A stretch of 63,596 nucleotides of DNA from a virus (lineage: Duplodnaviria; Caudoviricetes), in the IMG/VR virus record IMGVR_UViG_3300005098_000067, positions 1-63,596 of that record. One strand, 5' to 3'. The notes under the pieces are model-generated. The model made no database searches. It was not told where the DNA came from and saw only the letters and a list, made by a program, of their open reading frames with translations. This document shows, piece by piece, positions 1,139-54,648 of this stretch (positions are counted from its first letter, which is position 1; each line of letters begins with the position of its first letter). The position numbers and the translations under genes are program-made.

Positions 1139-1458
1139 AGAACCCTCCTCCGCCGTCGCTTTGTCATGTATGGCTTTGGCTGCTTCTCCGCTTGCTCTAG
1201 AGCTATCGCGTGCCTTAGCTGCCCCACGCGGCTGACCACCGCCCAGAGATTTACCCTGTTCCTGACCAGCCAATCGTCCTTTGCGTACTCTTGCAGCAAA
1301 GCTTTCACTTCCTCCTCTGACTGAGCGCAGGCTCTCAGCAGCTCCTTAGCCGCTTTTAGCTGGCCTCCGGGAGCTACCGAGTGCAGGTCGGGGCGCACCC
1401 CGGTCGCGCGTTCAATCACGGATTCAAACTCCATCAACACATCCCACGGCCTCATCAT
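1135..1458 (-). CDS. hypothetical protein, possibly replication-initiator-like
   Basis: ORF with GGGG/GAGG RBS, coupled to the DnaC-like gene. Function inferred from position only. Confidence 0.5.
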   Translation of the reverse strand: MMRPWDVLMEFESVIERATGVRPDLHSVAPGGQLKAAKELLRACAQSEEEVKALLQEYAKDDWLVRNRVNLWAVVSRVGQLRHAIALEQAEKQPKPYMTKRRRRRVL

Positions 1459-1520
1459 GACCCCCTACCAAACCCAAAGAGAGGGGAGACGGGACTGCGC
1501 AATCCCGTCTCCCCAAGTGG

Positions 1521-2426
1521 CTATAACGCAGGCGCAGGCGCGGGCGCAGGACTCTCCTTGGCGAACAGCGCATCGTGCACCGCTGCGAGCTTTCCAGCCC
1601 CCTTCACCTGTGCCAATACCGACTCACCATCCCGGTAGGGCACCCCTACAGACTTGGCCACCTCGATGATCCTGTCCAGGGTGATTTCACCGCGCGCATA
1701 CGCAGACCTGATGGCTTCCTCCATAGCAGCAGCCGAAGGCTCATTGGCATTTCCCTGGGCTGAGCTCGAGCGCTCCACGCGCTCCCAGATGTCGGCTCTG
1801 TCCTCCGCTTCCACCGCACGCAGGCTGTCGTGCTTAAGGAAGTTGCTGGACGGGTAGGTGCGGGCCGTCAGCAGCCAACCTTCGTCCGCTGCCTGGCGCA
1901 TCTTCGCGCCGATGACGTTCAGGACGACCTGGTCGAAACTGACCGGTGGGACGAGGGTCGCAAGCTCCTCGGCCAGGTAATCCGGGTCGTACAACGGCGA
2001 GGACGGGTCAACTTTCGACCGGGAGAACCCGGCCTGGAACGCCATGTTCAGCAGGCCCGGCAACCACTGCCCGGCCAGGTCAAAGGTGAACTCCTCCGCG
2101 GAGACGATGGTCACCCCTTTGGCCGGGACGGAGAAGGGGACTTCCTCGCCCCGAAACTCCTCCGGCATTACTACCTCGAACCGGACAATCAACTTGTCCA
2201 CGAGGTGGCGATGGCGCTCGCCCTCCGGTACTGGAGTCTCGCTGCCCACCTTGTACAGACGGCCATCGTCTCTGAACTCATACCCGTAGGCGGGACGCGA
2301 GTTACGGAGCAAGACCCCTGGCGCTTCAGTGGCGAATTCCTTGAATTTGACGACCAGGGCTTGGTTCGAGAGATCAACATCTGAAGAGCGCGACTGCGCA
2401 GTCGCCCCTTTATACTTCACTGGCAT
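1521..2426 (-). CDS. hypothetical protein (possible SSB/recombination protein)
   Basis: 301-aa ORF with AAGGAG RBS in the replication module. Confidence 0.55.
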   Translation of the reverse strand: MPVKYKGATAQSRSSDVDLSNQALVVKFKEFATEAPGVLLRNSRPAYGYEFRDDGRLYKVGSETPVPEGERHRHLVDKLIVRFEVVMPEEFRGEEVPFSVPAKGVTIVSAEEFTFDLAGQWLPGLLNMAFQAGFSRSKVDPSSPLYDPDYLAEELATLVPPVSFDQVVLNVIGAKMRQAADEGWLLTARTYPSSNFLKHDSLRAVEAEDRADIWERVERSSSAQGNANEPSAAAMEEAIRSAYARGEITLDRIIEVAKSVGVPYRDGESVLAQVKGAGKLAAVHDALFAKESPAPAPAPAL

Positions 2427-5314: not shown

Positions 5315-6433
5315 CTACCTCCCTCGCTCTCGACGAATCGACTCCAATAGCTCATCAGACCATATGAGCCTGAACACAGCCTCATCCCACGCGTACTTAG
5401 CCCGCTTATTCTCGCGGTCCCAACCCGCTCGCTTGATATGCTCAATGCGATAGCGCAGTGTGCCACGCAACCGGTGACCGGACAACGCTGGGCTAGGCTC
5501 AAACGGCAAGTCCTCGGCCGGTACCCAATGCCGCGCCATCAGCTCCCGAAGCTCTACCTCAATCCCGCCCCTGAAGAAGGCTACGGCTCCCAGGGGCACG
5601 ACCCCCTCCATTACCCGCCGCTCTCGCTCCAGAGACAGTATCCTCTGCACCACCCAGGTGCCACCGCACCGGAAGGCGATGGCTCTCATCCGACAGCATC
5701 CGCCACCTGGCCACCGCCGCGGCCTGTCCACGGCGTGAGACGGAGGCGGGTCAACTAGCATGGCATCGTAAGCTTGCCGCTCATCCACATCACTGAGGAC
5801 TTCGTATGCCTCGGCAATGCTTCTGAATTTCTCCCCGGCTCCAGGCTCGTGATTAACGTCGGGATGGTACCTCCGCGCTAAAGCCCGAAACGCTCTTTTA
5901 ATCTCGGCCGGTGTTGCCTGGCGGGAGACCCCCAAGCGCGAATAGAAGTCTCCGCGAAATGCTCCTCCATCCCGATCCGACGCGGGCGGGACGAAATAGG
6001 CCCGCGCCACCTCATAGGCAACCCGCAACCAGAGACCGTCCTCTAGCTTCGACAGATAATGAAAATCTGTCCCTGCCCACCTGGGGCGGGAGACGTAGCC
6101 CAACGCTACCTCGATCTCCTCCGCTGCGCGTGCAGCGGGGAAGACTCGAAAGTTACGGGGGCGGGCCCACTCCCTCTCAGTCGGTTCAAACTCCAGGACA
6201 TCCCCTGCCTCGAAATCCCCGAACCGGGCCGTGGGGATCATTGCCTTCTGCTCTTGGCCGTCAGCCTCCCTCAGCAAGACGAAAAACTCTTCGTCCACGG
6301 TCTCCTGGGGCGTGCGCGGGTAGGGCCGGCCGGCGGATATGTCCCGCAACCGTGGCATGTACTTCGCAACTACAAAGTGCATATTCGGCCCAACAGGCAG
6401 TGGAGCTCCCTGCCGGCCATCGCTTAGCTTCAT
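5315..6433 (-). CDS. DnaJ (J-domain)-containing protein
   Basis: [33 protein letters not shown]...[17 protein letters not shown] is a canonical J domain with HPD, placed internally. Confidence 0.9.
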
Positions 6434-7128
6434 AGCTGCTCTCCCGGCCGCCAACATGTGCCCTCAGGCGGGGGACTGGAGGGCGGGCGAGACCGAATCA
6501 AGGCAATCCAGAGCGGGCTGTCCCTGTACTCTGGCGGGCAGTAGGGCAGGTGCAACGCCCGAAAGAAAGCCTCTTCGGACTCGAATCCTACCAGCTTCCC
6601 GTGAGCCTTTATCCCTTCATGGGTAAGGGACAGGCCCATTCGCTTCGCCCGCTGCGCCAGAACGATGTTCTGGAGCGCTCCCGGGTCATCTGGGCCATAG
6701 GTGCCGGGCTGCCGAGCAGGACCGGTGCGGATGACCACCAATGGCCAGAACCGGCGCTCGCTGGCCAGGTAGGCATCGACCTGCACCCCGTCCAGGAAGA
6801 AACGCACACTGCGCCGCCCCGTGTCCCAAATGGAAACCGGGTTCTTCGGCGCCCACTTTTGAGTCGGCTTCACCCAGGCCGGTGCCTGGGGGTCAGCGTT
6901 CTCCATCAGCCACTCGAAGAACGGGACAAACCGGCGTGGCTTGTCGTCCAGCATGTCCCTCTTGCGCAGCTTGAAAACCGGGATGCCTACCACGTCCACG
7001 TCATGAACGCGAGGCTGGCCCCGTCTCAAACTGCCACAGAGCATGAGCCGCTCAAACATCCCCTCCGTCTCGCAGCGAAGCCGCCGCCAGACCTCCATGG
7101 CCACGTCCGCTCTCACCAACATTTTCAT
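6430..7128 (-). CDS. minimal family X DNA polymerase (palm plus C-terminal subdomain only)
   Basis: [36 protein letters not shown] and [20 protein letters not shown]. Confidence 0.85.
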
Positions 7129-7140
7129 TGCCTCCTTTCG

Positions 7141-7455
7141 CTACTCTCTTGCTGCCCTAATCGCCGCTAAACCTGCCTCGACCCCGGCCGACGATATACT
7201 CCACTCAACCGGGGGCAGGTTAGCAACTACAATCACCTTGAAATCTTGGTACAACTCCAGCGCTTGCTGGTCGTCCCCCAAATGGTGCGCCAGCATGGCT
7301 AGCGCCAATTGCGCCGGGCCTGACCCCAAATAGCCCCACTCGAAACCTGTCGGGCTGTGGTTCACCAAATCCAAACGCGGCTCGAGCGATTCCCCGTCCA
7401 CGAGGACAACGCAACCCTCTGGCTGCCGCGAACCCGTATAAACGTGCTTGCCCAC
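7141..7455 (-). CDS. DUF6166-like protein
   Basis: NHSPTGFEWGYLGSGPAQLALAML...YQDFK signature. Confidence 0.75.
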   Translation of the reverse strand: MGKHVYTGSRQPEGCVVLVDGESLEPRLDLVNHSPTGFEWGYLGSGPAQLALAMLAHHLGDDQQALELYQDFKVIVVANLPPVEWSISSAGVEAGLAAIRAARE

Positions 7456-7456
7456 T

Positions 7457-8212
7457 TCACCCTCCTACAAAATACGCATCGCTAGGATGCACCAAAATTG
7501 CTCCCACCTCGGCATCAGCCACCACCAGCAAGGTGTGGTAGACGGCCCGGTCCAAATAGGGCGACTCCCAATCGCCGAAGCTCCCGTAGCCCGATACCCA
7601 AACCCCAGTTTGGGCGCGAACCAGTTCGAACACTGGGCCTTTGACCTGGCAATCTTTCAGCCAGAATCCTCGTGTCGGCAGGCTAAGGCGGCTGTGATAC
7701 ATGACCTCACGCCACAGGTCGTATTTTACCGATTTCTCGATGGCGAAGCTGATGAGCCCACAGACCTCCAGCAAGTTCTTCGCCAAAGTCTCGAAAGTGC
7801 CGTTGCCGGAGACCTCAGAGGGCAGGGGCAAAATCACTCGGCCGCCCTCCCTCTCAACCTGGGCAGCTTTCGCCAGCTTTTCAGCCAGATACCGAGCCGC
7901 GCGCTCTTGCACTGCGTCTTCGTCTAGGACGATGGTGCTGGGATTTCGGGCATATCCTACCCAGGCCACGTAGCGACGCGCCCGGATCACCCGCCCGATC
8001 CAGTCCGAGCCGGCGCGGGCCGGATAGCGCTCCAGCACCGGGTCCCGATAGAACCGAGCTAGGATGCGCTCACAGGCCGGGCACCGAAACACGACCTCCG
8101 CCGCTCGATGGCTGACTTTGTCACGCTTGCCCGTCAGCCTGAGAGTAAGCCCATTCCAGCAACGGCAATTGGGAACTGCAATTCTCCTGAATTTCTTATG
8201 CCGAGCCATCAA
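7457..8212 (-). CDS. hypothetical protein with N-terminal Zn ribbon
   Basis: CRC and CPAC motifs; ORF in operon. Confidence 0.55.
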   Translation of the reverse strand: MMARHKKFRRIAVPNCRCWNGLTLRLTGKRDKVSHRAAEVVFRCPACERILARFYRDPVLERYPARAGSDWIGRVIRARRYVAWVGYARNPSTIVLDEDAVQERAARYLAEKLAKAAQVEREGGRVILPLPSEVSGNGTFETLAKNLLEVCGLISFAIEKSVKYDLWREVMYHSRLSLPTRGFWLKDCQVKGPVFELVRAQTGVWVSGYGSFGDWESPYLDRAVYHTLLVVADAEVGAILVHPSDAYFVGG

Positions 8213-8444
8213 GCCCTCCGCGTTTCATGTCGCCAGTGGGATGTCGAGAGCGAGCAGGCCGCCCTTCGAAGGCCCCCTCAACGTCCCGGCCGTTGCTTGC
8301 TGCCCCTTCTAGAATAGCCATCTCCTGCGCGACGAAATCTTCCGGTGATTGCCCGATAACGGCCGCCCGGATTAGCCGCGCCAGGAACCCACGCCCCTGG
8401 AATTCGTGATCGTACAGCTGCATTTTCTTCCTCCTTCCGCTCAT
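8196..8444 (-). CDS. hypothetical protein
   Basis: Short ORF with GGAGG RBS; exact start uncertain. Confidence 0.45.
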   Translation of the reverse strand: MSGRRKKMQLYDHEFQGRGFLARLIRAAVIGQSPEDFVAQEMAILEGAASNGRDVEGAFEGRPARSRHPTGDMKRGGLDGSA

Positions 8445-8458
8445 TCAGTGCTGCTGAG

Positions 8459-8788
8459 CTACAGCACCCACGGCTTGTCGAGCACAGCGTGGCAAGCTGT
8501 CTCGACGGAATCGGCATCGGCTGGATCAATGCCCCAGGCTGACGGATGCTTGCGGATGTCACACGCCATCAAGACCAGGACCCTTTCGAGCAAAGCCGCG
8601 TAGAATGGAGCGACAATGTACGCAATGCTCCGAACAGCTGACAGTGGCAGATCGAGATCAAGATTGCAGAGATGCTTCCCCATTACTTCCCTCTGACGAA
8701 CCTCAAAGCCCTGCTCCCTGAGATACCGCCAGACTCGACGCCCGCGTTCTGACTTTGGAATGTACAGGTGCTTTGCAGACATGTTCAC
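8459..8788 (-). CDS. hypothetical protein
   Basis: AGGAGGTG RBS directly after the structured element at 8804-8866. Confidence 0.55.
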   Translation of the reverse strand: MNMSAKHLYIPKSERGRRVWRYLREQGFEVRQREVMGKHLCNLDLDLPLSAVRSIAYIVAPFYAALLERVLVLMACDIRKHPSAWGIDPADADSVETACHAVLDKPWVL

Positions 8789-8803
8789 CTCCTATGAGTT
8801 ACT

Positions 8804-8866
8804 ACCCGCCTCCCGTGAGCCAGGCAAGTACCCTCATGCCGCGCGATGCTCTGCGCGGCGGCGGGT
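8804..8866. ncRNA. unassigned structured RNA motif, copy 1
   Basis: Intergenic. Closing stem ACCCGCC/GGCGGGT and inner stem GCCGCG/CGCGGC. Homologous to 9229-9293 with covarying stem. Confidence 0.55.
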
Positions 8867-8872
8867 CGTGAC

Positions 8873-9193
8873 TCAGCGGCTCAAACCGATGCACGCAATG
8901 GGTCGGCCGTCCTTATCACGGATCAACTCGCCGGGTTGATACAGATCAGGACGGTCATACCCAGCCCGGAACATACCCGACACAACGCAGATTGTGTCAG
9001 GTTGGGCATTGGGCAAACCCTCCGGTTCGCCATATTCGGCGACGAAGAGGGGGATTCCCTCGTCGGTCACGCCGACTTGCCGCCGTGTGGCGGCAATGCG
9101 AGCCACGGTGCCGGATGGGGGAATGACCACGATGACGTTTCCCTCGTTGTCGGCGATGTTTAATACATGCGGGGTCAGATTTACGATGTCCAT
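8873..9193 (-). CDS. conserved phage hypothetical protein (NLTPH family)
   Basis: MDIVNLTPH...PPSG.VAR...GLP...VVS...RPDL..PG...RD..G...C pattern, common in phages. Confidence 0.7.
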   Translation of the reverse strand: MDIVNLTPHVLNIADNEGNVIVVIPPSGTVARIAATRRQVGVTDEGIPLFVAEYGEPEGLPNAQPDTICVVSGMFRAGYDRPDLYQPGELIRDKDGRPIACIGLSR

Positions 9194-9228
9194 TTTCCTT
9201 GCTCCTTTCGTTTATTCGTTTTGCGCCC

Positions 9229-9293
9229 CCCGCCCCGTGGGCCGGGCCAGTACCCTCGTGCGCGGGGCGATAGCTCTGTCCCGCGCGGCGGGT
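9229..9293. ncRNA. unassigned structured RNA motif, copy 2
   Basis: Same architecture as 8804-8866. Inner stem GCGCGGG/CCCGCGC; conserved CAGAGC and GAGGGTACT.GCC.GGC.CACGG. Confidence 0.55.
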
Positions 9294-9455
9294 CTAAGTC
9301 CTACACGGAGCCGGGATAGCCCGGGTGCTTCTTGCGCTCCTCCTCGCTCCCGGGCAAAGGGCGAGGCTTATTAGCGCCGCGTTGCTTCTCAGCCGGGGTT
9401 ATGCGCGGCTGGCGCTGGCGACGCCGTTTCTTGCGCAACACTCTTGCCACTTCTA

Positions 9456-9821
9456 TCACCTCCCTTCCTCTTCGCTCTCGCCCAACAGAACCAGGGCCGC
9501 CCACGCCTTGGGGTCATGAGGAGCAAACTCACGGAGTTTTTCGACCGGTTGCGAGAGATACGATTCGCGCAACCACTCTGCGAGCTCTCCCTCCCGCTCG
9601 AAGATCAGCCGTGCTCGCTCCCTGGGCGAGGCGGGCCAGAGATCGTACCGGTGTATCTCCTCCAACGAGAGGCGGTCTGGATACACCACCCGGCCGTGGA
9701 ACCACCGCCCCTCCCGCTCCTGGGGCGGGGAATACGTCTCGCGTTCCGTGAACCCATCCGGCTGACAGCCGAGACCGGGCGGTCGGTTCACATACAAGTA
9801 CACGTGTTCCGGCATTATCAA
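9456..9821 (-). CDS. DarA C-terminal-like (anti-restriction-associated) domain protein
   Basis: Y..RPPGLGCQPDG...HGRVVYPDRLSLEEIHRYDL resembles the DarA_C pattern. Confidence 0.55.
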   Translation of the reverse strand: MIMPEHVYLYVNRPPGLGCQPDGFTERETYSPPQEREGRWFHGRVVYPDRLSLEEIHRYDLWPASPRERARLIFEREGELAEWLRESYLSQPVEKLREFAPHDPKAWAALVLLGESEEEGR

Positions 9822-16921: not shown

Positions 16922-16990
16922 TAGCCTGCCTCATCAGCACCTGGGCGGCTACCCCAAGTGAACTGGGGGCTGAGTCCCCCAGTTTCGGCT
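16922..16990 (-). ncRNA. type II hammerhead ribozyme, canonical core
   Basis: GCC-GAAA-[CTGGGGG ACTCAG CCCCCAG]-TT-[CACTTGGG GTAGCCG CCCAGGTG]-CTGATGA-GGC-AGGCTA. Loop TAGCC can pair with the 3' GGCTA. Predicted GUU cleavage between 16961 and 16960. Confidence 0.92.
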
Positions 16991-17919: not shown

Positions 17920-18409
17920 TTGGGAAAAGGACCGATTGTGCTTGGTGCTGCTGGGTTTGCTGGGTGAAAGGGTATAGTGATATGGAAAATGGTAGTGCGT
18001 GGGAGCTGCGGAAGGCTGCAAGGGGCAAGTAAAACGCCCGTTTGTGCTTTGAGCAGCGGGGTTTAGCGAGAATTTAGGATATAGATGATATGGGCCGATG
18101 GTTGCGTTGATTAGCGAGAAGGCTGCATGGAGCATTTTGGGCACCCTGTTGAGCGGGTTGCTGCTGAGTTTGCTGGTAAAATTGGTATGGTGATATGGAA
18201 AGGATAGAGGCGCCGAAGCTAGGGAAGGCTGCGAGGAGGGCGACTTGGTTTCGGCCGTTTGGAGATGGCATAGCCCGGGCCTTTCTCGGCTCCCGAAACC
18301 TGCCTGTGGCCATTGGTTGCTGACGCAGGTTCGCTCCCGCGTCAGCTTTTCGGGATCCGATACGTGATAGAGAGAGGGGTCTTGCGTTTGGGCTGTGGCC
18401 CAAACGCAA

Positions 18410-20918: not shown

Positions 20919-21425
20919 TTAACCCAATCTGTGCAATGCGAACCAGGACGATGAGACGGTCACCACGCCCCCGGAATCTTGCCAAACCTGATGCTGCACG
21001 TAGTCTCCAGCATCCAAATGGTAGACCGCGACAACCTGCACAATTGGCCCCCACGTTGCATTTCCGGCCCCGGCATTCCGCGCTTCCCCCAGGACTGTGA
21101 CTCCATTCAACAATATCCCGCTCCACCTCCGCCCGCCGGCTGCCGGGGACCAATTTGCCTGACCGAGAATCAGGTGATAACCGGTGGCCTGGCAGGTCAG
21201 CCGTGAGTTATTTACGGCATTATCATGAAAGTCATCAGTGTCGTACCGCTCGTTGGGATAGGCCAAACACGTCGCCACCATGTTGGCTATATCCTGATTG
21301 CCCGCGTAGACCCGGCACCCGGAAAACTTCCCCCCCCACTGGGCGGTCTCCAGCTGGCGAACCCTGCGGCCCAGATCGGCTAAAGCGCTTATCAGCTTGG
21401 CGAATTCCGGTGAATCTGTGATCAT
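20919..21425 (-). CDS. tail-fibre/receptor-binding protein with C1q-like domain
   Basis: ERYDTDDFHDNAVNNSRLTC...GYHLI...LDAGDYV..VWQDSG pattern. Confidence 0.7.
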   Translation of the reverse strand: MITDSPEFAKLISALADLGRRVRQLETAQWGGKFSGCRVYAGNQDIANMVATCLAYPNERYDTDDFHDNAVNNSRLTCQATGYHLILGQANWSPAAGGRRWSGILLNGVTVLGEARNAGAGNATWGPIVQVVAVYHLDAGDYVQHQVWQDSGGVVTVSSSWFALHRLG

Positions 21426-22657
21426 GGCAAATCGGCAAACTCCATTGTTATTCGCTCATCTGGGTTCGACATGTCCACATTGACTGTGACCAGCTTCTTG
21501 TGAAAGACTAGTCCGTCGTAGCTGGCTGTGATCCTGTCGCCCCACCAATAATGCAAACCGTACAAGGTACTTGGAATCTGGAGTGGCTTGAACGAAAATT
21601 TCTCCTGCGCTTGCAATTTTTCCAGCTCTGCAACTGCCTGATCGCCTAGCTGCGCTGGGGTATTCTGGCTGGCTCCGCCCCGGGACGTTTCCAGTAAGTT
21701 GTACGGCGAGTCGGCCATTGCTGCTGGGGCCACGGCTATTCCTACCGGGCGATCCAGGTCTTGACCCGACCCCAGGACATAAGCTGCTGTGCGTTCCCCT
21801 GACCTCGCCAGAGAGTACGTTGGCTCTGTCATGTTACCGTACTCCAAGCTGAACACCACGGGGGCATTGCCCGCTGCATTCAAGCCCGTGGCTGCATCCA
21901 AGCCGTTCGTGGTGCGATCCTGGCCTAGTTGGCCTGGATACGTCCTAAACTCCCAGGCCCCAGGACCAATCCCCACGACGTTGAAATCCAGACCTGAGAA
22001 ATTGGCTATCTCCTGCAGGACTTCGAGCAAGTTGCGGAAAGCTCGGTCTCCCGTCCAGACCCCGCCCCAGCCGGAGTCAGCTTGTACGCTGAATCCGGGC
22101 ATGACGCCTGGAATCCAGGGCCGAGGCGGGGCCGTCGCGCCCGGGCCCAGATTTTCGTCCACGAACTCCTTCATGACCGTCTCCGCTGGAGCGCTTTTGG
22201 AGGCGAAGGGCGATGAGGCAAAGTAGCTTATGATGCGACGAGCTAGGAATGAGTTTGGGCCAAAAGCCAAGGCCGTAAAGTGCTTGGCTCCATTGGCTAA
22301 CGTCTGGCGCACCGTGTCCCGAATCACCGACTCAAACTCAAGATACCAGTCCAGGCCCGCGCCCGGAACGGAGCGCCAGACTTCTATCTGCCCGTCAAGC
22401 TCGAACAGCGGCACGCGGGGGTCGTGCCCGTCTATACAAAAGACCAGAGAGCCTTGGTCGTTCAGTTGGTGGCTAAAGCGAAGGACTTTCCAATGGTCAA
22501 AGATGGCAACTTGATTGCCCAGCGGATCCCGAAGCAGGACGTAGTAACGCGCCGCAAGCCCCGCCCCTGTTGCAACCTCCGGCAAAGGCCCGGGTCCCGG
22601 AGACCCACAGGTCTCGGCGTAGCATTGCTGCGCATACCTCCAGTTTGAGTAAGGCAT
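21422..22657 (-). CDS. siphovirus ReqiPepy6 gp37-like minor tail protein
   Basis: Size and position; LARRII, NLLEVLQEIA, VVFSLEYGN, YVLGSGQ and YGLHYWWGDRIT motifs. Confidence 0.75.
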   Translation of the reverse strand: MPYSNWRYAQQCYAETCGSPGPGPLPEVATGAGLAARYYVLLRDPLGNQVAIFDHWKVLRFSHQLNDQGSLVFCIDGHDPRVPLFELDGQIEVWRSVPGAGLDWYLEFESVIRDTVRQTLANGAKHFTALAFGPNSFLARRIISYFASSPFASKSAPAETVMKEFVDENLGPGATAPPRPWIPGVMPGFSVQADSGWGGVWTGDRAFRNLLEVLQEIANFSGLDFNVVGIGPGAWEFRTYPGQLGQDRTTNGLDAATGLNAAGNAPVVFSLEYGNMTEPTYSLARSGERTAAYVLGSGQDLDRPVGIAVAPAAMADSPYNLLETSRGGASQNTPAQLGDQAVAELEKLQAQEKFSFKPLQIPSTLYGLHYWWGDRITASYDGLVFHKKLVTVNVDMSNPDERITMEFADLP

Positions 22658-22659
22658 GA

Positions 22660-23580
22660 CTACGTTCCATTGATAATCGGCGAGCCAGAATTTCCCTCGA
22701 AGTAGCGAACGAAATCGAAAGCGGCAATGGGCGAGAAGCGAGGAGCGTCCGCGTCGACAAACCCAGGCCACCGGACGAAGAGCGTCAGGTGCGTGATTTC
22801 CTCCGGGGCAATCGGGACTTCCGCCACATCTAGGGGCCCCTCCTCTGTGAACGACCCTGCTATGGGCGCCCACGTTCGCCCATCCCCAAACCAGGCGCTA
22901 AAAGCGGGACCGAGGTAGACTGTCGTGCGCAAGACTATCATCAGGTACTCCGCCCCCGCCGCGAACCCTCCTGCATCCAGGCAGGTTCCCATCGCACACA
23001 ACTCGCCGTGATAGAGTTCGCCTCCCCAGGGCATTGCGCTCTTACAGATGTATATCTTCTCCCGTGAGTCGAACCCTTGCCCGTACACATCCGTTCCGCT
23101 GAGCATAATGCCTGCCGAGTACGGCACTGCGTACTGGGCCGTGACATGCGAGACCTTGCACACAAACCGGCATTCGCTGACCCCGGACAAGTCGACCGAT
23201 TTCCTGATCATGGCCGCGTTGTTCTCCGGGTCCCAACCTCCGAGATAACTCTCGTCAAACCTGGCCTGCATCCCCATCATGCCCCGATAGGTCGTCGGGT
23301 CGTAGATGCCACCCCCAGGCGGGCCTTCGTAGAACAGGTCTACCGTGCCCAATGTGCAATTGAGAGGCGTCCATGCCGGATCCAGCACCCCGGACTCAAA
23401 CTCGTCATCATAGGCTGACGGGGCAGGGGGCTTGAGGTCAGGCCGATACGTCCGATGGATCTCCCTCTCCAAGGCCATGATAGCGTCCTGCATGTTGTTG
23501 ACATGCGAGGCCATAATCAGATCGACGTTATCTACCTTGTCGGCCCAGGTGTCCTCACTGTAGGGCCAATTCGTGGCCAT
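22660..23580 (-). CDS. minor tail / receptor-binding protein
   Basis: N-terminal ASHVNNMQDAIMALE motif followed by a DDEF..LD..W lectin-like region. Confidence 0.6.
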   Translation of the reverse strand: MATNWPYSEDTWADKVDNVDLIMASHVNNMQDAIMALEREIHRTYRPDLKPPAPSAYDDEFESGVLDPAWTPLNCTLGTVDLFYEGPPGGGIYDPTTYRGMMGMQARFDESYLGGWDPENNAAMIRKSVDLSGVSECRFVCKVSHVTAQYAVPYSAGIMLSGTDVYGQGFDSREKIYICKSAMPWGGELYHGELCAMGTCLDAGGFAAGAEYLMIVLRTTVYLGPAFSAWFGDGRTWAPIAGSFTEEGPLDVAEVPIAPEEITHLTLFVRWPGFVDADAPRFSPIAAFDFVRYFEGNSGSPIINGT

Positions 23581-25703: not shown

Positions 25704-28700
25704 CTACAGACTAGCCGCTGCTAAAGCGGCTACAACATCGTAGTAAATCTCGGCCTCCGACTGTTGATTCGCATAAGCTGCGTTGACTTCTATGTGCACC
25801 GAGCGATCTACTTGACCGCCTCCACCTCCGCCAGCCGCAGCAGGCATGGCCGGCATAACCACCCGGATCTCGGACGCCAATCGAGGTAGCTCAACTCCCG
25901 CCAGCCGGTGGGCTTGCTCGGCAATGTCCGCCAAACCCTGAGCCCACGGCGCCATCGAGTGACTGACCAAATCCACCGGAGCGTCGGGCATCCCCCTGAT
26001 GACATTCGCTAGCTTGTTCAAAACATCTAGAGCAAGGCTAGCCCACCTGCTTAGCTCCTCGAGACCGCTCAGGAACGGATTCAGGATTTCCTCCATGAAC
26101 CAGTTTATCGCCTTACCCAGGACTTCCTCAACGACACGGGCTCCCTCCTTCAGCCACGGCACCACATCCTCCTCGATGACTTTGCGAACTTTGTCCAGTG
26201 CCGGATAGAGCGTATCACTCCACAGGCTTGCCAGGTCAGTAACGTTCTTTTTCATGGCTGAAATGTAGATTTCGACCAAATCCTGGAAAATCGGCATGAC
26301 ATTCTCTTGGATGAAGGCCCAGACTTTCTTTAGGGCGGGCCACAAGACCTCGCTCCAGAAGTCCGCCAGGTCCGAAATATTCCGCATCATGGCAGCGATG
26401 TAGATTTCAACCAGGCTCTGGAAAATCGGGATGATGTTCTCCTGGATGAAGGCCCAGACCTTCTGCAAAGCTGGCCACAGGGTCTCGCTCCAGAAGCTCG
26501 CTAAGTCCTTCACGTTTTTTATCATGGCTGCAATGTAGATGCTGACCAAAGCCTGGAAGATAGGGATGACCGACCCCTGAATGAAAGCCCAGACTTTCTT
26601 TAGGGCCGGGGCCAACACATCCTCCCAGAAGCTTGCCACCTTGCTTAAGGTGGCCGGTACATTATCGCGCAACCAGGTGATGAACGACTCAAATCCAGCT
26701 TTCACCTGTTCGCCGTGCTCTGCCCACCAGGACTGCAAAGCCGCAAGCAGATCCTCGATGGCCGACAGGGCTATGTGCATAACCTTTATGATCGTGGCCG
26801 CTATCTTCGGCCAGTGCTCCTCCAGCCAAATGCTGATAGCTGCAAAAGCATCTGTGACCAGCGGCCCTATCGTCTCGGCCAAGTAAGCTAATGCACCCGT
26901 GACGCCCTCGATGACCGTCCGAACGATGATCTCGACGCGCGGCCAATTGAACTCCAGCCAGCGCAGCACCGCCGCAAAGATGCCCACCAGCGAGGGCATG
27001 ACGCGACCCACAAAATCTCCGATTACATTCGTGACTACCTCTGACCAGGCCAGTAGCACCCGTTCAATGTCAGGCCAAATTCGCTTCGCCAGGCGCTGGA
27101 TTCCGCCCCAGGTCTGGCTTATGATTTGGCCTATGCTCTTTGCGGCTTTGCCCAGGAGATCAAAGGTCTTGCCCAACCCGGTCAGAACCTTCTTGACCCA
27201 GGGGATGGCCATGGCCTTGTCAAGCATATCCTGAAACAGCCCTCCTAGCGCATCTCGCAGGCTCTCTACCTCCGGCATCGTCTCGCCCAAGTCGAGTTCG
27301 ACTTCTACCTGCAAGTCTTCTGCCTCGCCTAAGGCTTGAGCAACAGCCTCCGTTGCCTCGGCGACCTCCTCCATTGATTCGCCTAGGTCTTCAATACTCA
27401 GCTTCGCCACCGCGTCGGCGAGTTTGGCCATGATGTCTTTCTGCTGCTCCATGACCTGCTTGGTCTGATAGTGCAGGTCTAGCTTGGCCTCGGCAATGGC
27501 CATCTCCTCTTTCAGCTCATCCATCCGGTCTTGCGCCTGCCGCTGAGCATTGCGCAGAGCTATTCGCTCCTCGACCTGCATGGCGTGCTGGATGCGCTGC
27601 TGGCGCCGTGCCTCCTCCACTTGCTTGTGCAGGGCGCTCGCCCCGGCTTCGTACTGCTCTTCGGTGATTTCCCCGGCCTCGAGCTTCTGGCGTAGCTCCT
27701 CAAGACCGAGAACCTCGGCGGCTTCGGCGCGCTCAATCGCCTCACTGAAGGGCCGCAGAGCATCGTCGAGCTCCTCGAACCGCTCCTGAATCCGGGCCAG
27801 GCCTTCCGCCTCCTCTTGGTACCTGACCTGGAGCCGAATCACGTCCACCAGCCCTTGCCCGACCTCCCCCAGTGAGGAGCTAATATTCTCCAGGGACTCC
27901 TCGAAGACGTCCCAATTCGTCCAATCGGGAGTGCCGATGCTGATGACCGATGCCAGGGCTTCCCGAAGCTCTACAAACGTCTCGGCAAACTTCCCGACTT
28001 CAATTTCCCCACCCAGTACCATGAGCTCCAGCGGCCCTCGAAACCGCTCCGCTAAATCCTTTAGCATATTGAAATCGGCAGACGAGAAGCCTGCCAAATA
28101 GACGTTCATCGCCTCCGTGCCCCATTTGCCCAAATCCGGCAAGAACTGGGGCGGGGACTTGGCCTTCATCATGCCTGAAATGAAAGATGCCACCGACTGA
28201 AGCGCCGAGGCCAAATAGGTCTTTATACCTTCGATTATCCCCCCGGCGTAGGAGGCCATGAGATTTCTGCCCCAACCCACGACTCGTTGCACCATCCCTT
28301 TGAACAGCACTATCACTGACGCCAGAGCCGTCTGCCAGGCCCTGGCAAACAGTCGACCGGCCTCCTCCGCGTTCCCCGACAGCAACTCCTTGAATGAATC
28401 CAGGATCAGCGACACGGCGCGAAAGACGTAGTTAAAGTGCTCCCCAAACTTGCTGATGTATGAAGTCGCGCGTCCCAACGTGGAGCCGATGCCCGCCGCC
28501 AACTGCTCAAAGATCGGCTGCAGGCGACCCACCACTAGGGAGACGACCTCCTGCACCTGGGCGCTGATCTGCTGCCCCCAGTTCTGCCATATCTCGATTA
28601 CCGGAGCCATGGCTTCCTTGATGCTGGTCATCACTTGCTCTATGGCTGTACCCAATCCGCCCCAGTCCCGCTTAATTGCCAAAGCCACCAACCCAATGGT

Positions 28701-29753
28701 CGCGCCCAGGGCAGCTAACGGGATGGACAGGGGCAAGACCGTCTTCACAACCGCGCTCAGGGCAACTTTCACCAAGGCCAACTGGGATGCTATCTTGGGC
28801 AATAGCGCCAACTTGAGCGCAAGAGCCCCGGTCAAGAGTCCTATTGCAGCCGTGGCTGCAATGACGGACGCGATTAACTTGTGCACGACCGGCGGCAGGG
28901 CAATTATGAACTTGAGCACATCTTTAGTAGCGAAGACTATCGCCCGAAAGGCGGGGAACAGGTGCTCACCTATGGCCAGGGTAGCTGTGTGAGCGTACCG
29001 AGACAGCGAGCGCATCATCTTCGCCGGATTTTTCATGGCCTCAGCGTAGACCCCAGCGTACTTGCTCGCCGACTCCATGATCGTGTTCAACATGGCTTGC
29101 CGCTTCTCGGTGACCGTCAGCTGCTCAGCCGTCTTGCCCACGGATTTAGCGTACTTCCCGTACATCTTCTCGCCGGACGTTATAATGCCGAACTGCCACA
29201 GCAACATCGGGTTCAGGCCCACCAACGCGGCTGTCAAGCGCTGCGCTGAGAGCGAAGAGTCCAGTCCGGCAACGACGGCCATGTTCTGGGCGGCCGTGGC
29301 TATGTCTGTAGCTTGAGCAACGTCCAGCTCAGATTGCATGAACTGGGTTAGCATCGTCCGCGAAGCGTCCACGGTCATTCCGACGTTGCGGAGCTCCATC
29401 TCAAGCTCGTGGAGACGCTCCTTGCTTATGTTTGCATTCTGGCCCACGACCTCCATGACGATTCGGAGCTCGTCCGAGCGAGCAGCGGTCATGGCGAACT
29501 TCTTGCCCAGAGCTAGTGCCCCACCTCCCAGAGCGCTCAGGGTGCCGCCCAAGACAGCTAACCCGGGGCTTGCAGCCTCCAACGTGCCGAGCAAACCCCG
29601 GGTTCGTTCTTCCATCTGAGTCGTGGCTTGTGCCGCCGCGCCCATGCTATCCGCTATGCCTGCATTCGACATCTTGACCGAACGCGCGGCGCTCTCATAC
29701 GCGGCCAGCCCGGCCATAGTCAGTTGTAAGCCTAGCGTCCGGGCCAAAGTCAT
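25704..29753 (-). CDS. tail tape measure protein
   Basis: 1349 aa, Ala/Leu-rich and helical, with roughly 40-aa Trp-periodic repeats at about 26200-26640. Confidence 0.92.
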   Translation of the reverse strand: MTLARTLGLQLTMAGLAAYESAARSVKMSNAGIADSMGAAAQATTQMEERTRGLLGTLEAASPGLAVLGGTLSALGGGALALGKKFAMTAARSDELRIVMEVVGQNANISKERLHELEMELRNVGMTVDASRTMLTQFMQSELDVAQATDIATAAQNMAVVAGLDSSLSAQRLTAALVGLNPMLLWQFGIITSGEKMYGKYAKSVGKTAEQLTVTEKRQAMLNTIMESASKYAGVYAEAMKNPAKMMRSLSRYAHTATLAIGEHLFPAFRAIVFATKDVLKFIIALPPVVHKLIASVIAATAAIGLLTGALALKLALLPKIASQLALVKVALSAVVKTVLPLSIPLAALGATIGLVALAIKRDWGGLGTAIEQVMTSIKEAMAPVIEIWQNWGQQISAQVQEVVSLVVGRLQPIFEQLAAGIGSTLGRATSYISKFGEHFNYVFRAVSLILDSFKELLSGNAEEAGRLFARAWQTALASVIVLFKGMVQRVVGWGRNLMASYAGGIIEGIKTYLASALQSVASFISGMMKAKSPPQFLPDLGKWGTEAMNVYLAGFSSADFNMLKDLAERFRGPLELMVLGGEIEVGKFAETFVELREALASVISIGTPDWTNWDVFEESLENISSSLGEVGQGLVDVIRLQVRYQEEAEGLARIQERFEELDDALRPFSEAIERAEAAEVLGLEELRQKLEAGEITEEQYEAGASALHKQVEEARRQQRIQHAMQVEERIALRNAQRQAQDRMDELKEEMAIAEAKLDLHYQTKQVMEQQKDIMAKLADAVAKLSIEDLGESMEEVAEATEAVAQALGEAEDLQVEVELDLGETMPEVESLRDALGGLFQDMLDKAMAIPWVKKVLTGLGKTFDLLGKAAKSIGQIISQTWGGIQRLAKRIWPDIERVLLAWSEVVTNVIGDFVGRVMPSLVGIFAAVLRWLEFNWPRVEIIVRTVIEGVTGALAYLAETIGPLVTDAFAAISIWLEEHWPKIAATIIKVMHIALSAIEDLLAALQSWWAEHGEQVKAGFESFITWLRDNVPATLSKVASFWEDVLAPALKKVWAFIQGSVIPIFQALVSIYIAAMIKNVKDLASFWSETLWPALQKVWAFIQENIIPIFQSLVEIYIAAMMRNISDLADFWSEVLWPALKKVWAFIQENVMPIFQDLVEIYISAMKKNVTDLASLWSDTLYPALDKVRKVIEEDVVPWLKEGARVVEEVLGKAINWFMEEILNPFLSGLEELSRWASLALDVLNKLANVIRGMPDAPVDLVSHSMAPWAQGLADIAEQAHRLAGVELPRLASEIRVVMPAMPAAAGGGGGGQVDRSVHIEVNAAYANQQSEAEIYYDVVAALAAASL

Positions 29754-51596: not shown

Positions 51597-53054
51597 CTAG
51601 ACGACCAATGCCCCCCCGGCTTGTATGCCCCCAAATCGGGCGGCCTCGGCGAGGACGTGTTCAGCGGCATCCGAGAAGTCGTTGAGCTTCTTCACCTCTA
51701 ATCCCTTTGTGTTTCTGTGGAGTGCTTTGAACTGTTGGGCGACCGTGGGGCAGGCCTCGCGGTCTATCTGGAGCAGGGGGCCTTTGTCGGGGTCAATGAG
51801 CCTCCGTACCAGCCTATGGCGTTCTTCACGCCGCATGACCCGCAGGGGGACGACCACCAGGCCTGCCTCGGCGAACGCGGCAAGGGATGAGGGCTGATCT
51901 GGCGGGCAGAAGAAGGGCGTATCCCAGCCGTACTTGTCGGCCAGCGATACTGCTATCTCCAGTTCCCTGGATGGGGTGCAGAAGCGCTCTCCCCGTTCCT
52001 CAATGAGCCAATAGCGGCCCCCTGGGAGCTCAGCAGCGACGACGAAGACGAGCGGGTGATCGAACCCCCAGTCCACTCCTACGCCCTGGGGAGTACGGCG
52101 CAGCTTGGCTACCTCAGGAGCTAGGCGGGAGGCGTGCACCTCGACGGAGAAGCGAGGGAAGATGAGCATTTCGCGCTCCGGGGCGGCCAGGAGTTTCTGT
52201 ACCAGGAAGGTCTCCGCGTCCGAGGATAAGTACTCGTCTATGGCATCGACGCGTCTTACCCAGCCGTCCGCTCTAATGCACCGCCCGCCGCAGAGTGGCT
52301 CTTTCTTGTTCGTTCGCGGGTTCGTCCAGACGAAGAGCGGGCACTTCTCCCGGAGGCAGGTCTCACAGCGCTGCATGGTCTCCCAAAGGCACCATCGGTA
52401 GGTCTTGTACCCCCGCGCCCTTGCTATGGGGAGCAACTCTTGCATGAGCCCGTAGGCTGTGTACCGAGTGCTTATAGCCGCGCGTTGGGGCGGGTTGGCT
52501 TTCGAGCCCGAAAGCATGAGCTGGGCCGTCTCGAAGTTCTGGAACGACCAGAGGTCTATCTCGTCCATGATCAGCCTGTTACAGCGAATGGCCGTGACCC
52601 CTGTAGGCGTGTGACCTGAAAGGGCGCGAACCCAGGACCCGTTCTTCCAGGTGATGCTCCCGGCCACGTTCCGCGCAATGTCGGCAGCTAAAGCTGGCTC
52701 TTTGAGCATGTCGACCAGGTAGCCGTGCCCCCATTCCCCCTGGCTGCCTATGGCCCCATAGTGCGCTGTGCCTGAACCTGGATAGAACTTCGAGGCGAGC
52801 AGGTTCAGGATGGCCAGGTTTCGGGTCTTGCCTGCACCACGAGCGGCCAGGACCAGGGCTCTCTGAACCTTGCGGAAGAACATGTCCGAGACGAACGTGA
52901 AGGGGGCTTGGTGGTCTGGACAGACGGCTACACGGGGAATCTTGAAGCCGAGGACGGCATGGATCCAGGCGTGGAGCGCTTCGGGCGTCTTGGGGCGACG
53001 GCCGGAGACTACCAGGAGCTGCCAAAGGTTGCTGAGGAGGCTTTCGTCGGTCAT
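51597..53054 (-). CDS. terL: terminase large subunit
   Basis: AARGAGKT (Walker A), LIMDEID (Walker B), IST, GVDWGFDHP nuclease motif and C-terminal NDFSDA. Confidence 0.9.
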   Translation of the reverse strand: MTDESLLSNLWQLLVVSGRRPKTPEALHAWIHAVLGFKIPRVAVCPDHQAPFTFVSDMFFRKVQRALVLAARGAGKTRNLAILNLLASKFYPGSGTAHYGAIGSQGEWGHGYLVDMLKEPALAADIARNVAGSITWKNGSWVRALSGHTPTGVTAIRCNRLIMDEIDLWSFQNFETAQLMLSGSKANPPQRAAISTRYTAYGLMQELLPIARARGYKTYRWCLWETMQRCETCLREKCPLFVWTNPRTNKKEPLCGGRCIRADGWVRRVDAIDEYLSSDAETFLVQKLLAAPEREMLIFPRFSVEVHASRLAPEVAKLRRTPQGVGVDWGFDHPLVFVVAAELPGGRYWLIEERGERFCTPSRELEIAVSLADKYGWDTPFFCPPDQPSSLAAFAEAGLVVVPLRVMRREERHRLVRRLIDPDKGPLLQIDREACPTVAQQFKALHRNTKGLEVKKLNDFSDAAEHVLAEAARFGGIQAGGALVV

Positions 53055-54646
53055 TTGTCGTCGTTGGGTGGGCGGAGCAATTCAGGGGCCAAATCCCGAA
53101 TGCCAGCGATCTGCTCCAGCAAGCGTGTGAACTGCTCCTCCTCCATGCCTGCAACGATGACATTCAGGGTTCTAGCGTCTACCTTCGTCCCGGTCTCCAG
53201 CTTGCCCAGCAACCGGCCCAGGAGCGCAATGTCTCCTGAAAGCTGAGCTGAGAGACCGGATGCCTCTTTGGTCAGAGCCCCTCCCAGGGCCACCGACTCG
53301 ATGAGCAACTGGCGAGACAGCCGCGCTGAGTCCATCTGAACTTTTGCCCACATGAAGTTCAACAGGCCCTCGAAGTTGCGACTGCCTAGCATATCGCCTA
53401 GGGCCGCAAATTCATTATCAAACGCGCAAGCTGCCCCCTCTTCATACCTGGGGCATTTGCCCATCAGGGCGCAATCGTCACAGCGCAGCCGAGGCACCCG
53501 AGCCGTGTCCTGACCGGCTCGAAGAGCGTAAACATTGCCCTTCTGCGCCTCGGAGATGGCTGCCTTGTGCTCCGGGGAGAGTGTCACTTGCCGGGGAGGC
53601 TTGTTGCCGCCCCGACCTAACCCGTGCCTTTTACACGCCCCTTCTGTCTCCGGTGACCCACAGGTGCAGATTTCATTTTCATTCACCACGGGCAAGAGCT
53701 CTGGCGGGGGCTGATTCCAATAGTCGAGCTTGCGACGGCGCTGGACCTCCGTCAAATAGGTCTCAAAGTAGGCCCACACCCTGGCATTGACAAAATCTAC
53801 CGCGCGTGCGTCGTCTTCGAGGTAGGGCGTGACCAGCTCCTCAGGGACGGGCAAACCCTTGGCTTCTAGGTCACGGAGCACTTTCTCCCGTCTATGCCTC
53901 CTCTCCCGCAGGTCCCCGGTCTCAAAGTGCCCAATCCCTCGCGCCGGGTCCAGGAAATACGTCGAGCCGTACATCGACCCGGCCTTCCAGGACGTGGAAT
54001 CGACCGAGAAGAACCCCGGCACCTTGTATAGCACCTCCAAAGCTGTCGTGGCAAAGGAGTGCAACTTCGCCCCGTGCTTCCTGCACCTTCCCAAAATCCG
54101 CATCTGGCCGTTCACGCCGGCGAGAATCCCGGTTGAGCCCGCTCCCTGGGTGGCCACATACGGGAACTCCGAGGCCCACTCCTCCCAAACCTGCCAGCAC
54201 CGCCCTCCCACCTGCACGTCCTGGCTGGTATGAAAAACAGGAACGTACTTCTCACGGGGGAATCCGGCCTTGAGCGCCTGCTCACGCCAGGACAAGACCG
54301 TGGGCAAGCCCACGATGCTGTCGATGTCTAGCTCCACAAACGCATCGGCATACTCGTGGAACTCCAGAAGAAACTCCAGGTAGTCGGCCCAGAAGTCCTC
54401 CGGCTTGCCTACGGAGGTCTTGCGCTGCTTGGTGGCAATGAAGCCCGCCTCCGAGAAAAACGAGTGAGCCCCTGAGTCGATCATGACAAACTCGAAGTTC
54501 TTTCGCAGCTGTTCCAGGCGCTCCCGTTTCTTGGCTGGCGATAGTTTGCGCAGGATGACGAAGGACGTCAAGACTGACTTGGCCCCTGCCCGGGCCAGCA
54601 GTTCAATGTCCTTCGCCCTATCCGCCCCTGCCAAACAGAGATGCAT
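53051..54646 (-). CDS. TGT/DpdA-like TIM-barrel protein fused to a terminase-small-subunit-like C-terminus
   Basis: LTSF, MIDSGAHS, ELDID, PVFH, LHSF and SVDSTSW, then QKGNVYALRAG, CxxC...C..C and a helical tail. ATGA-coupled to terL. Confidence 0.7.
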   Translation of the reverse strand: MHLCLAGADRAKDIELLARAGAKSVLTSFVILRKLSPAKKRERLEQLRKNFEFVMIDSGAHSFFSEAGFIATKQRKTSVGKPEDFWADYLEFLLEFHEYADAFVELDIDSIVGLPTVLSWREQALKAGFPREKYVPVFHTSQDVQVGGRCWQVWEEWASEFPYVATQGAGSTGILAGVNGQMRILGRCRKHGAKLHSFATTALEVLYKVPGFFSVDSTSWKAGSMYGSTYFLDPARGIGHFETGDLRERRHRREKVLRDLEAKGLPVPEELVTPYLEDDARAVDFVNARVWAYFETYLTEVQRRRKLDYWNQPPPELLPVVNENEICTCGSPETEGACKRHGLGRGGNKPPRQVTLSPEHKAAISEAQKGNVYALRAGQDTARVPRLRCDDCALMGKCPRYEEGAACAFDNEFAALGDMLGSRNFEGLLNFMWAKVQMDSARLSRQLLIESVALGGALTKEASGLSAQLSGDIALLGRLLGKLETGTKVDARTLNVIVAGMEEEQFTRLLEQIAGIRDLAPELLRPPNDDK

Positions 54647-54648
54647 TA

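Follow-up and report, generated by a model that had tools for sequence, protein, structure and literature searches.

Why would a tailed phage carry two similar, compact intergenic structures, one on either side of a single small gene? The question is raised by positions 8804 to 9293 of IMG/VR record IMGVR_UViG_3300005098_000067 (Duplodnaviria; Caudoviricetes), whose 63,596 bases are the whole stretch of DNA analyzed here (the window). The original prediction, made from the sequence alone, placed two intergenic elements of roughly 65 nt around open reading frame (ORF) 8873-9193 and proposed a new ribozyme or processing element. Both elements, here called A and B, are found at those positions, and the minus-strand sequences quoted for them are correct. 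We conclude that A and B are real, compact, structured elements that belong to no described family. As to their role, we tentatively favor a sense-strand RNA element that would mark processing or stability boundaries in an early polycistronic transcript.

Two copies of one element around a small early gene

The elements and the genes that they adjoin are as follows.

8804-8866, minus strand: element A, 63 nt
9229-9293, minus strand: element B, 65 nt
8873-9193, minus strand: bracketed gene, 106 amino acids (aa), probable Crn4b-like cyclic-oligoadenylate ring nuclease
8459-8782, minus strand: gene downstream of A, 107 aa, with ribosome-binding site (RBS) AGGAGG and ATG at 8782
9301-9450, minus strand: small basic gene upstream of B, ~49 aa, with RKKRRRQRQ near the N terminus

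A and B share a 23-nt core, GAGGGTACTnGCCnGGCnCACGG, which includes four free positions and lies at 8813-8835 and 9235-9257 on the minus strand. The core is otherwise absent from the window, even when up to three mismatches are allowed, and none of 100 dinucleotide shuffles of the window gave two matches. The four substitutions that separate the copies within it fall in a loop, at a junction position, or in a wobble-compatible pair. The outer stem, with end heptamers ACCCGCC...GGCGGGT, is identical in the two copies apart from its end pair. The likeness ends sharply at the element borders, and the flanking DNA does not align. No target-site duplication was found at the element ends, and a search of the window for an antisense target of the core or loop gave none.

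Nearly all genes of the window are on the minus strand, and A and B fall within a run of small early genes, spaced 422 nt apart on one transcript. Element A starts 6 nt past the TGA of the bracketed ORF and ends 7 nt ahead of the AGGAGG of the next gene. Element B starts 7 nt past the TAG of ORF 9301-9450 and ends ~20 nt ahead of the AAAGGAG of the bracketed ORF. Neither overlaps an RBS.

An inner stem that changes in sequence and stays paired

Read on the minus (sense) strand, the elements are made up of these parts.

8860-8866 with 8804-8810: P1 of A
8853-8859 with 8838-8844: P2 of A, with loop AGAGCAUC at 8845-8852
8825-8837: conserved junction of A, AUGAGGGUACUUG
8821-8824 with 8812-8815: P4 of A, with loop 8816-8820
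9287-9292 with 9229-9234: P1 of B
9280-9286 with 9260-9266: P2 of B, with a 13-nt loop (9267-9279) containing AGAGC
9247-9259: junction of B, ACGAGGGUACUGG
9243-9246 with 9234-9237: P4 of B, overlapping P1 by one base

A covariance model (R1) with stems P1, P2, and P4, for which A was the only input sequence, was used to scan the window with filters off. The model scored A at 99.6 bits and recovered B at 35.2 bits (E value of 1.2e-6 for the whole window). The next-best match reached 14.1 bits (E, 0.29), and among the 39 matches at an E value of ≤10, only A and B fell below 0.29. RNAalifold, which was blind to the R1 model, also predicts P1, P2, and P4, forming a three-way junction. The repeat, its stems, its conserved junction, and its placement are observations.

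According to the original prediction, the inner stem varies in sequence yet remains paired, and the model-guided alignment of A and B bears this out: four of the seven P2 pairs are changed on both sides, and all 14 cells are paired. P1 is invariant except for its end pair, and every pair in P1 and P2 is Watson-Crick. In P4 (CCYG/CGGG), only one side changes: the pair is U-G in A, C-G in B. Changes on both sides occur at 4 of 18 pairs overall, in an alignment of two sequences, and the control is weak, with as much covariation arising in 32 of 500 column shuffles. Divergence is uneven, as 8 of 14 P2 positions differ compared with 5 of 39 in P1 and the core (Fisher p = 0.002). Because P2 has drifted while keeping its pairing, we see it as being under structural constraint. 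The fold z-score of B is only -0.88, and P4 has a competitor, the alternative hairpin GGGU-ACUN-GCCY, with which both copies are just as compatible. The pseudoknot once proposed between GAGC and GCYC gains no support from the copies, since an A-C mismatch interrupts it on the sense strand of B.

The functional strand is mildly favored to be the sense (minus) strand and is not settled. It is favored mainly because of gene orientation and placement. The consensus energy is -32.05 kcal/mol for the sense strand and -27.75 kcal/mol for the antisense strand, and the sense strand gains a fourth helix, CCYG/CGGG (U-G in A, C-G in B). Both this helix (P4) and the alternative hairpin depend on G-U pairs, which become A-C on the opposite strand. 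The caveat raised in the original prediction, that a third stem pairs better on the plus strand, was justified: the antisense strand retains a 5-bp helix through G-U pairs.

No match to known RNA families or signals

The Rfam 15 library used here comprises 4227 families, including those self-cleaving classes that it contains. Over the whole window at the gathering threshold, it identified only one tRNA and a Hammerhead_II at 16920-16990, with no match at A or B. Relaxing the threshold to an E value of ≤1 added a second tRNA and two subthreshold matches away from A and B. The region 8700-9400, searched at an E value of ≤10, gave three noise matches, none within A or B, and each element searched alone at that threshold matched only fragments of unrelated families (8.8 to 12.1 bits). 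The elements match no known ribozyme family, in line with the original judgment by eye. The slot between stop codon and RBS that they were said to share with hammerheads is indeed the same, but Rfam finds one hammerhead (16920-16990, minus strand) and not several.

A hammerhead core consists of CUGANGA and GAAA around three stems. The elements have GCAUGA (A) or GCACGA (B) before the GGGU hairpin, with no GAAA after it and no Rfam match, and we rejected a hammerhead identity. A pattern scan for the hammerhead core was uninformative (6 matches versus 3.9 expected), the pattern being ill suited to permuted type II hammerheads. Hepatitis delta virus (HDV)-like, pistol, and twister topologies were dropped by eye, and a k-turn was dismissed because the second GA is missing in B.

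Other signal classes fared no better. Intrinsic terminators are predicted at four sites in 7000-11000 (shuffle mean, 2.9), with none in 8804-8866 or 9229-9293 and the nearest on the gene strand at 7474-7492; on neither strand is P2 or P1 followed by a run of T. The sole sigma-70 promoter-like site in 7000-11000 (-35 and -10 hexamers with a 16- to 18-nt spacer; shuffle mean, 1.1) is at 9814-9841 on the minus strand, outside the elements. A sigma-54 promoter was rejected as its spacing suits A only, stop codon read-through as there is an in-frame TGA 12 codons past A and B is out of frame, and a short leader ORF as none is common to A and B.

Mobile-element sites were considered as well. An integron attC site was discarded: the element ends, ACCCGCC...GGCGGGT, are unlike RYYYAAC...GTTRRRY, and the window, a record whose genome completeness is estimated at ~58%, contains no tyrosine recombinase (PF00589, 0 matches, whereas 14 of 14 control genomes match). 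An IS200/IS605-type (PATE-like) cassette would have subterminal hairpins at both ends and a Y1 transposase in cis or in trans. Direct, hairpin-bearing repeats do flank one gene here, and the Y1 transposase (PF01797) has 0 matches in this ~58%-complete record; an enzyme acting in trans or encoded in the missing 42% of the genome is conceivable.

Further copies and relatives elsewhere

Contigs of a marine-sediment DNA run (X1) were placed on 7500-10700, and their features were read by hand from a 30-letter loose-end consensus. Five pieces match the window itself, and two short partial matches cover element A only. A third copy of the element is found on a 167-nt contig that matches 8805-8840 with four differences and has the same P1. 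Its P2 is an 8-bp stem of different sequence, with one U-A pair more than in A, and its loop starts with AGAGC. In its other flank, this copy has an RBS that closely resembles that following B, so that A, B, and the third copy each precede an RBS. A fourth, hybrid copy is on a 1683-nt contig that matches 8827-8870 with four differences, 6 nt past a TGA. It keeps the 5' half of A and turns unrelated after GGGUACUU, and the upstream gene differs; to judge from its sequence, it looks like a mosaic joint. As read from these contigs, the element is present at more than two places, and P2 pairing persists as its sequence drifts. The conserved loop of the original prediction survives in part: AGAGC is retained in the third copy, and the loop sequence AUCG is lost. 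Two further runs (X2 and X3) gave no contig pieces placed on 7500-10700. Among the sequencing runs that contain the region, no RNA run is listed.

The search of phage metagenomes that had been proposed yielded no convincing relative in pattern scans of IMG/VR, JGI, and GTDB, collections from which records very near the window were possibly left out. In IMG/VR, the 23-nt core matched no stretch. A 17-nt core matched 26, all of which were read: 24 show no further likeness, one (L003) is within a 683-aa ORF, and only L013 extends. The combined loop and core pattern matched 59 stretches, with the core continued in none; P1 with the loop and GAGGG matched 12, none of them real; and a relaxed core matched three loci, namely L013 and two identical matches inside an ORF. 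JGI metagenomes gave five stretches (three being one sequence), none with P1, P2, or the loop, and none of 51 stretches in GTDB genomes was preceded by GA with the loop motifs. A blastn search of 8790-9310 against cultured phages returned seven records with matches of only 24 to 25 nt (E values of at least 2).

L013 is an unrelated 10-kb viral contig. It carries AUGAGGGUACUaGCCUGGC-CACGGG (a 25-nt core) within a long, strongly folding hairpin, in a gap of ~1 kb (1000-2036) between an HNH-type endonuclease gene and terminase genes. The gap has no ORF of ≥70 aa except one doubtful 81-aa TTG ORF (1387-1632, minus strand). The core scores 18.3 bits against R1, and given the 26 matches of the 17-nt pattern, we estimate that eight further matching bases would arise by chance with a probability of ~1e-3. 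The match is to the core only, with no P2. L013 has no protein in common with the window, no Rfam match, and no blastn match among cultured phages. L013 is a doubtful candidate for a homologous copy. As matters stand, the motif is a well-defined candidate confined to a single lineage, its copies too few to prove the case.

The bracketed gene probably encodes a ring nuclease

The Crn4 fold family is marked by conserved T/H and R residues, as set out in a passage of PMC12830947. The AlphaFold model of the bracketed protein has a pLDDT of 96.5, and its best Foldseek match is Crn4 (9r7b; E, 5e-9; TM score, 0.74; 35% identity). A profile of its family, a stand-alone protein of ~105 aa in 43 clusters, matches Crn4b among PDB sequences (E, 2e-18), and the alignment brings LTPH and the R of "(I/V)RD" into register. 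T7, H9, and R92 do not vary across 42 family members and are intact in the bracketed protein, which accordingly has both the Crn4 fold and the conserved T/H and R residues of Crn4b. According to the same source, cA3 and cA4 are degraded by Crn4b, whose phage copies are possible anti-CRISPRs (PMC12830947). On the basis of these sequence and model comparisons, we consider 8873-9193 to be probably a Crn4b-like ring nuclease gene with an anti-defense role, directed against type III CRISPR or against the cyclic-oligonucleotide-based antiphage signaling system (CBASS).

The G+C content of the gene is the same as that of its neighbors. Used alone as a query (P0001), the bracketed protein found no relative, and the neighboring ligase found none either. 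An ENA entry (P0005) encodes a 78%-identical Crn4b-like relative of 157 aa with a C-terminal extension that bears a CPFC motif. The protein encoded downstream of A (P0002) matched only a 99%-identical variant and no Pfam or PHROG family. The small basic protein encoded by 9301-9450 likewise has no Pfam or PHROG family; a 48-aa homologue (P0048), 68% identical over 37 residues, shares RITPAEKQRGANKPRPLP and is without the arginine run.

Other structured RNAs and the gene setting

The gene string that contains A and B has other structured or repeated elements.

16920-16990, minus strand: type II hammerhead (Rfam RF02276), 46.5 bits, in a stop-to-RBS slot
13937-14008: tRNA-Thr, in a stop-to-RBS slot
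12493-12567, minus strand: odd tRNA (Rfam, 40.4 bits), with a four-base anticodon (gcct) called by ARAGORN, in a stop-to-RBS slot
12573-12597, minus strand: lone hairpin with a 9-bp G+C-rich stem and loop AGACAUC, after a stop codon and before the odd tRNA
16506-16596 and 15979-16072, minus strand: tRNA-like repeat pair, 85-92% identical, around the single gene 16080-16469, in stop-to-RBS slots
15190-15285, minus strand: tRNA-like stretch with T-arm-like GGCGGGTTCGACTCCCGCC and a 7-bp acceptor-like AGCAAGC/GCTTGCT, with no Rfam or ARAGORN call
15160-15178, 15682-15700, 16473-16491, and 16899-16917 (and 13901-13922 and 15943-15964), minus-strand reading: conserved leader ATTAGTTAGCAAAGGAGGC

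From its call, the odd tRNA would have an anticodon loop of 8 nt. Two to three copies of GACGAAAGGATGAAC come after it in tandem and end in the RBS of gene 12046-12432. The lone hairpin beside it may be a stand-alone relative of P2, the local match to R1 being weak (13.5 bits; E, 0.42); hairpins with such a loop are not clearly enriched in the window (25, versus 12.4 on average and at most 20 across 30 shuffles). One copy of the tRNA-like repeat is a 91-nt ARAGORN call whose "anticodon" (gcag) has four bases; it also has an acceptor-like stem of 7 bp and T-arm-like GGGTTCGAGGCCC. At least four to six of the small early genes have the leader ATTAGTTAGCAAAGGAGGC ahead of them, immediately past the hammerhead or tRNA-like elements. 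The early region also has a third pair of direct repeats, of 53 nt and 79% identity, at 17936-17988 and 18149-18201, 213 nt apart.

Genes that place the elements within the phage genome are listed here.

9818-10681: ATP-dependent DNA ligase, in the run of small early genes
9456-9815: DarA_C-domain protein, in the same run
6430-7128: polymerase-beta-thumb protein, in the same run
5315-6433/6457: DnaJ-domain protein, in the same run
25704-29753: tape-measure protein
21422-22873: minor tail protein
53051-54877, minus strand: queuine tRNA-ribosyltransferase-like (DpdA-type) gene (PHROG 887; E, 6e-34)

The DpdA-type gene hints, by its sequence, at 7-deazaguanine modification of the phage DNA.

A putative boundary element in the early transcript

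We prefer a boundary role at the RNA level mainly because cleavable or nuclease-recognized RNA folds recur between the small genes of this phage. In the fold that we envisage, an invariant P1 would be stacked on the fast-evolving, always paired P2 with its AGAGC loop, and the invariant 13-nt junction AYGAGGGUACUNG would lead to the short hairpin P4. Placed after the stop codon of one small early gene and ahead of the RBS of the next, the element would form a boundary in a long early transcript, at which the RNA may be cut or may be shielded against exonucleases. The cutter would be a host or phage nuclease that recognizes the fold or, less probably, the RNA itself. The mRNA segments of the Crn4b-like gene and its neighbor could in this way gain their own ends, stability, and translation level. 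The strand, the cleavage, and the effect on expression are what we infer in this scheme. Between the two functions originally proposed, we prefer that of a processing element and regard the ribozyme as a minority possibility.

Several observations weigh against a boundary element of the sense strand. The covariation is anecdotal, as it comes from two copies aligned by a tool, is equaled in 32 of 500 shuffles, and concerns a stem of G and C only; structures slid by ±2 also covary somewhat because G and C alternate in the stem. On the antisense strand, G-U pairs maintain a separate 5-bp helix (GUGAG/CUCAU in A; GUGGG/CUCGU in B). Relatives of the bracketed gene do not carry the motif with them: the family alignment gave four loci at 38-51% identity, with the motif in none of the four (160- to 170-nt flanks), and P0005 reads past the position of the stop codon in this phage, so that element A is not always behind the gene. 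Finally, L013, the sole outside match, runs opposite to its neighboring genes, beside terminase genes, and if homologous, it would fit a DNA-level site better.

Such a site is the alternative that we take most seriously, unlikely as we consider it to be. A and B would serve as linkers for cassette exchange by recombination, or as hairpin or cruciform sites for a recombinase or transposase acting in trans. Direct copies bracket one accessory gene, the Crn4b-like one, much as another repeat pair brackets 16080-16469, and the fourth copy, which departs from A after GGGUACUU and has another upstream gene, is mosaic-like. P0005, where the gene occurs without element A behind it, and L013, with its orientation opposite to the transcribed genes if it is homologous, point the same way, and since P1 and P2 are entirely Watson-Crick, DNA hairpins would be equally good. 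Yet this ~58% of the genome has neither a Y1 transposase nor a tyrosine recombinase, the element ends have no target-site duplication, and the bracketed gene does not differ from its neighbors in G+C content. Simple homology-driven exchange would leave the asymmetric 23-nt core and the U-G pair of P4 unexplained, and the constant spacing of 6 to 7 nt from the stop codon suggests a link to expression. We think it quite improbable that A and B are only a recent local duplicate of an ordinary intergenic hairpin, without function. The presence of just two copies in the window, the lack of relatives in large collections, and the ease with which G+C-rich DNA forms stems (compare the z-score of B) would fit a duplicate of this kind. 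It is at odds with the uneven divergence, in which the divergent part is the one that keeps its pairing, and with copies on other contigs that have yet another paired inner stem; moreover, the dissimilar flanks beyond the sharp ends argue that this is not a plain segmental duplication.

Other roles at the RNA level compete with a processing or stability boundary. A binding site for a protein or for RNA polymerase, either a translational operator or an antitermination site like lambda nut or HK022 put, seems rather improbable to us; its recognition parts would be the linear core and the loop of the P2 hairpin. It would account for two similar sites of ~65 nt in an early operon with a varying stem, a kept AGAGC loop, and an invariant linear stretch, for the conserved small basic protein whose gene ends 7 nt before B, and for a similar hairpin alone at 12573-12597. 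However, both sites are on one transcript, 422 nt apart, with no terminator between them or just after (the nearest is 7474-7492, and the count of 4 compares with a mean of 2.9), and the elements do not overlap the RBSs that an operator might cover. The small protein is without a Pfam or PHROG family, its homologue lacks the arginine run, and the likeness to nut and put is a putative one. In our estimate, a new self-cleaving ribozyme class, with an active site made up of the invariant junction and the AGAGC loop and with the early transcript as its target, is very unlikely. Passages of PMC6765202 report that searches in the neighborhood of known ribozymes have turned up new ribozyme classes and also further structured RNAs that showed no cleavage in tests. 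A and B are compact (63 to 65 nt), with an invariant junction and variable stems, they occupy the same slot as the type II hammerhead of the same gene string, and no known ribozyme family matches them. Against this, RNAs found in the same way did not cleave, according to those passages (PMC6765202); neither a dinucleotide at which cleavage would occur nor a tertiary contact can be named; the proposed pseudoknot is broken in B on the sense strand; and the family is tiny, being absent from the IMG/VR, JGI, and GTDB pattern scans. The copies being so few, the ribozyme idea comes from positional analogy only. An equally long shot would be a new class of small functional RNA at the borders of anti-defense genes, be it a ribozyme with AYGAGGGUACUNG and AGAGC as its site or, more boldly, a ligand-sensing fold through which a host-defense signal would control expression of the Crn4b-like gene.

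If A and B are processing or stability signals, the phage would part its small early genes by at least three RNA devices (a hammerhead, tRNA-like folds, and the A/B motif), and one of the genes so framed would be a probable anti-CRISPR ring nuclease. This would be a compact natural system in which to study the posttranscriptional control of the dose and timing of phage anti-defense genes. Were the elements self-cleaving, they would constitute a new ribozyme class, which is a rare thing; as linkers at the DNA level, they would show the movement of an anti-defense cassette among related phages.

Comparison with known systems

Integron attC sites, with consensus ends RYYYAAC and GTTRRRY, are imperfect inverted repeats (57-141 bp) that follow promoterless ORFs and keep structure more than sequence. 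A and B share these traits, whereas their heptamers are ACCCGCC and GGCGGGT and no tyrosine recombinase was found in the window. The PeSL cassettes of T4-type phages consist of a promoter and stem-loop repeats that flank small accessory ORFs. As in those cassettes, small accessory genes of a variable early region are here framed one at a time by direct stem-loop repeats, with hints of mosaic joints; in contrast, the elements contain no sigma-70-like hexamers, and their conserved part is the 23-nt core.

HK022 put RNAs and lambda nut are represented by two similar structured sites in the early transcripts of each phage, with stems that vary and key nucleotides that are kept. The two sites described here may be likened to them in their varying stems and kept loop or linear nucleotides, but both belong to one transcript, with 422 nt between them, in surroundings where no terminators stand out. 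In the early and late mRNAs of T7, RNase III sites are long irregular hairpins between genes that define the mRNA ends. Unlike them, A and B have two short stacked stems (7 + 7 bp) and a conserved side branch of 25 to 27 nt, with no duplex of ~20 bp; like them, they are repeated ~60-nt intergenic structures in polycistronic phage transcripts, partly conserved in sequence.

The nearest comparison is within the same gene string. The elements differ from the type II hammerhead at 16920-16990 (minus strand) in having AYGA in place of the CUGA...GAAA set familiar from hammerheads and in having no Rfam match, and cleavage is for them a candidate activity only. The resemblance is otherwise close: hammerhead and elements alike start 2 to 7 nt past a stop codon and end shortly before an RBS, are ~65-70 nt long, form a three-helix junction, and lie on the same strand.

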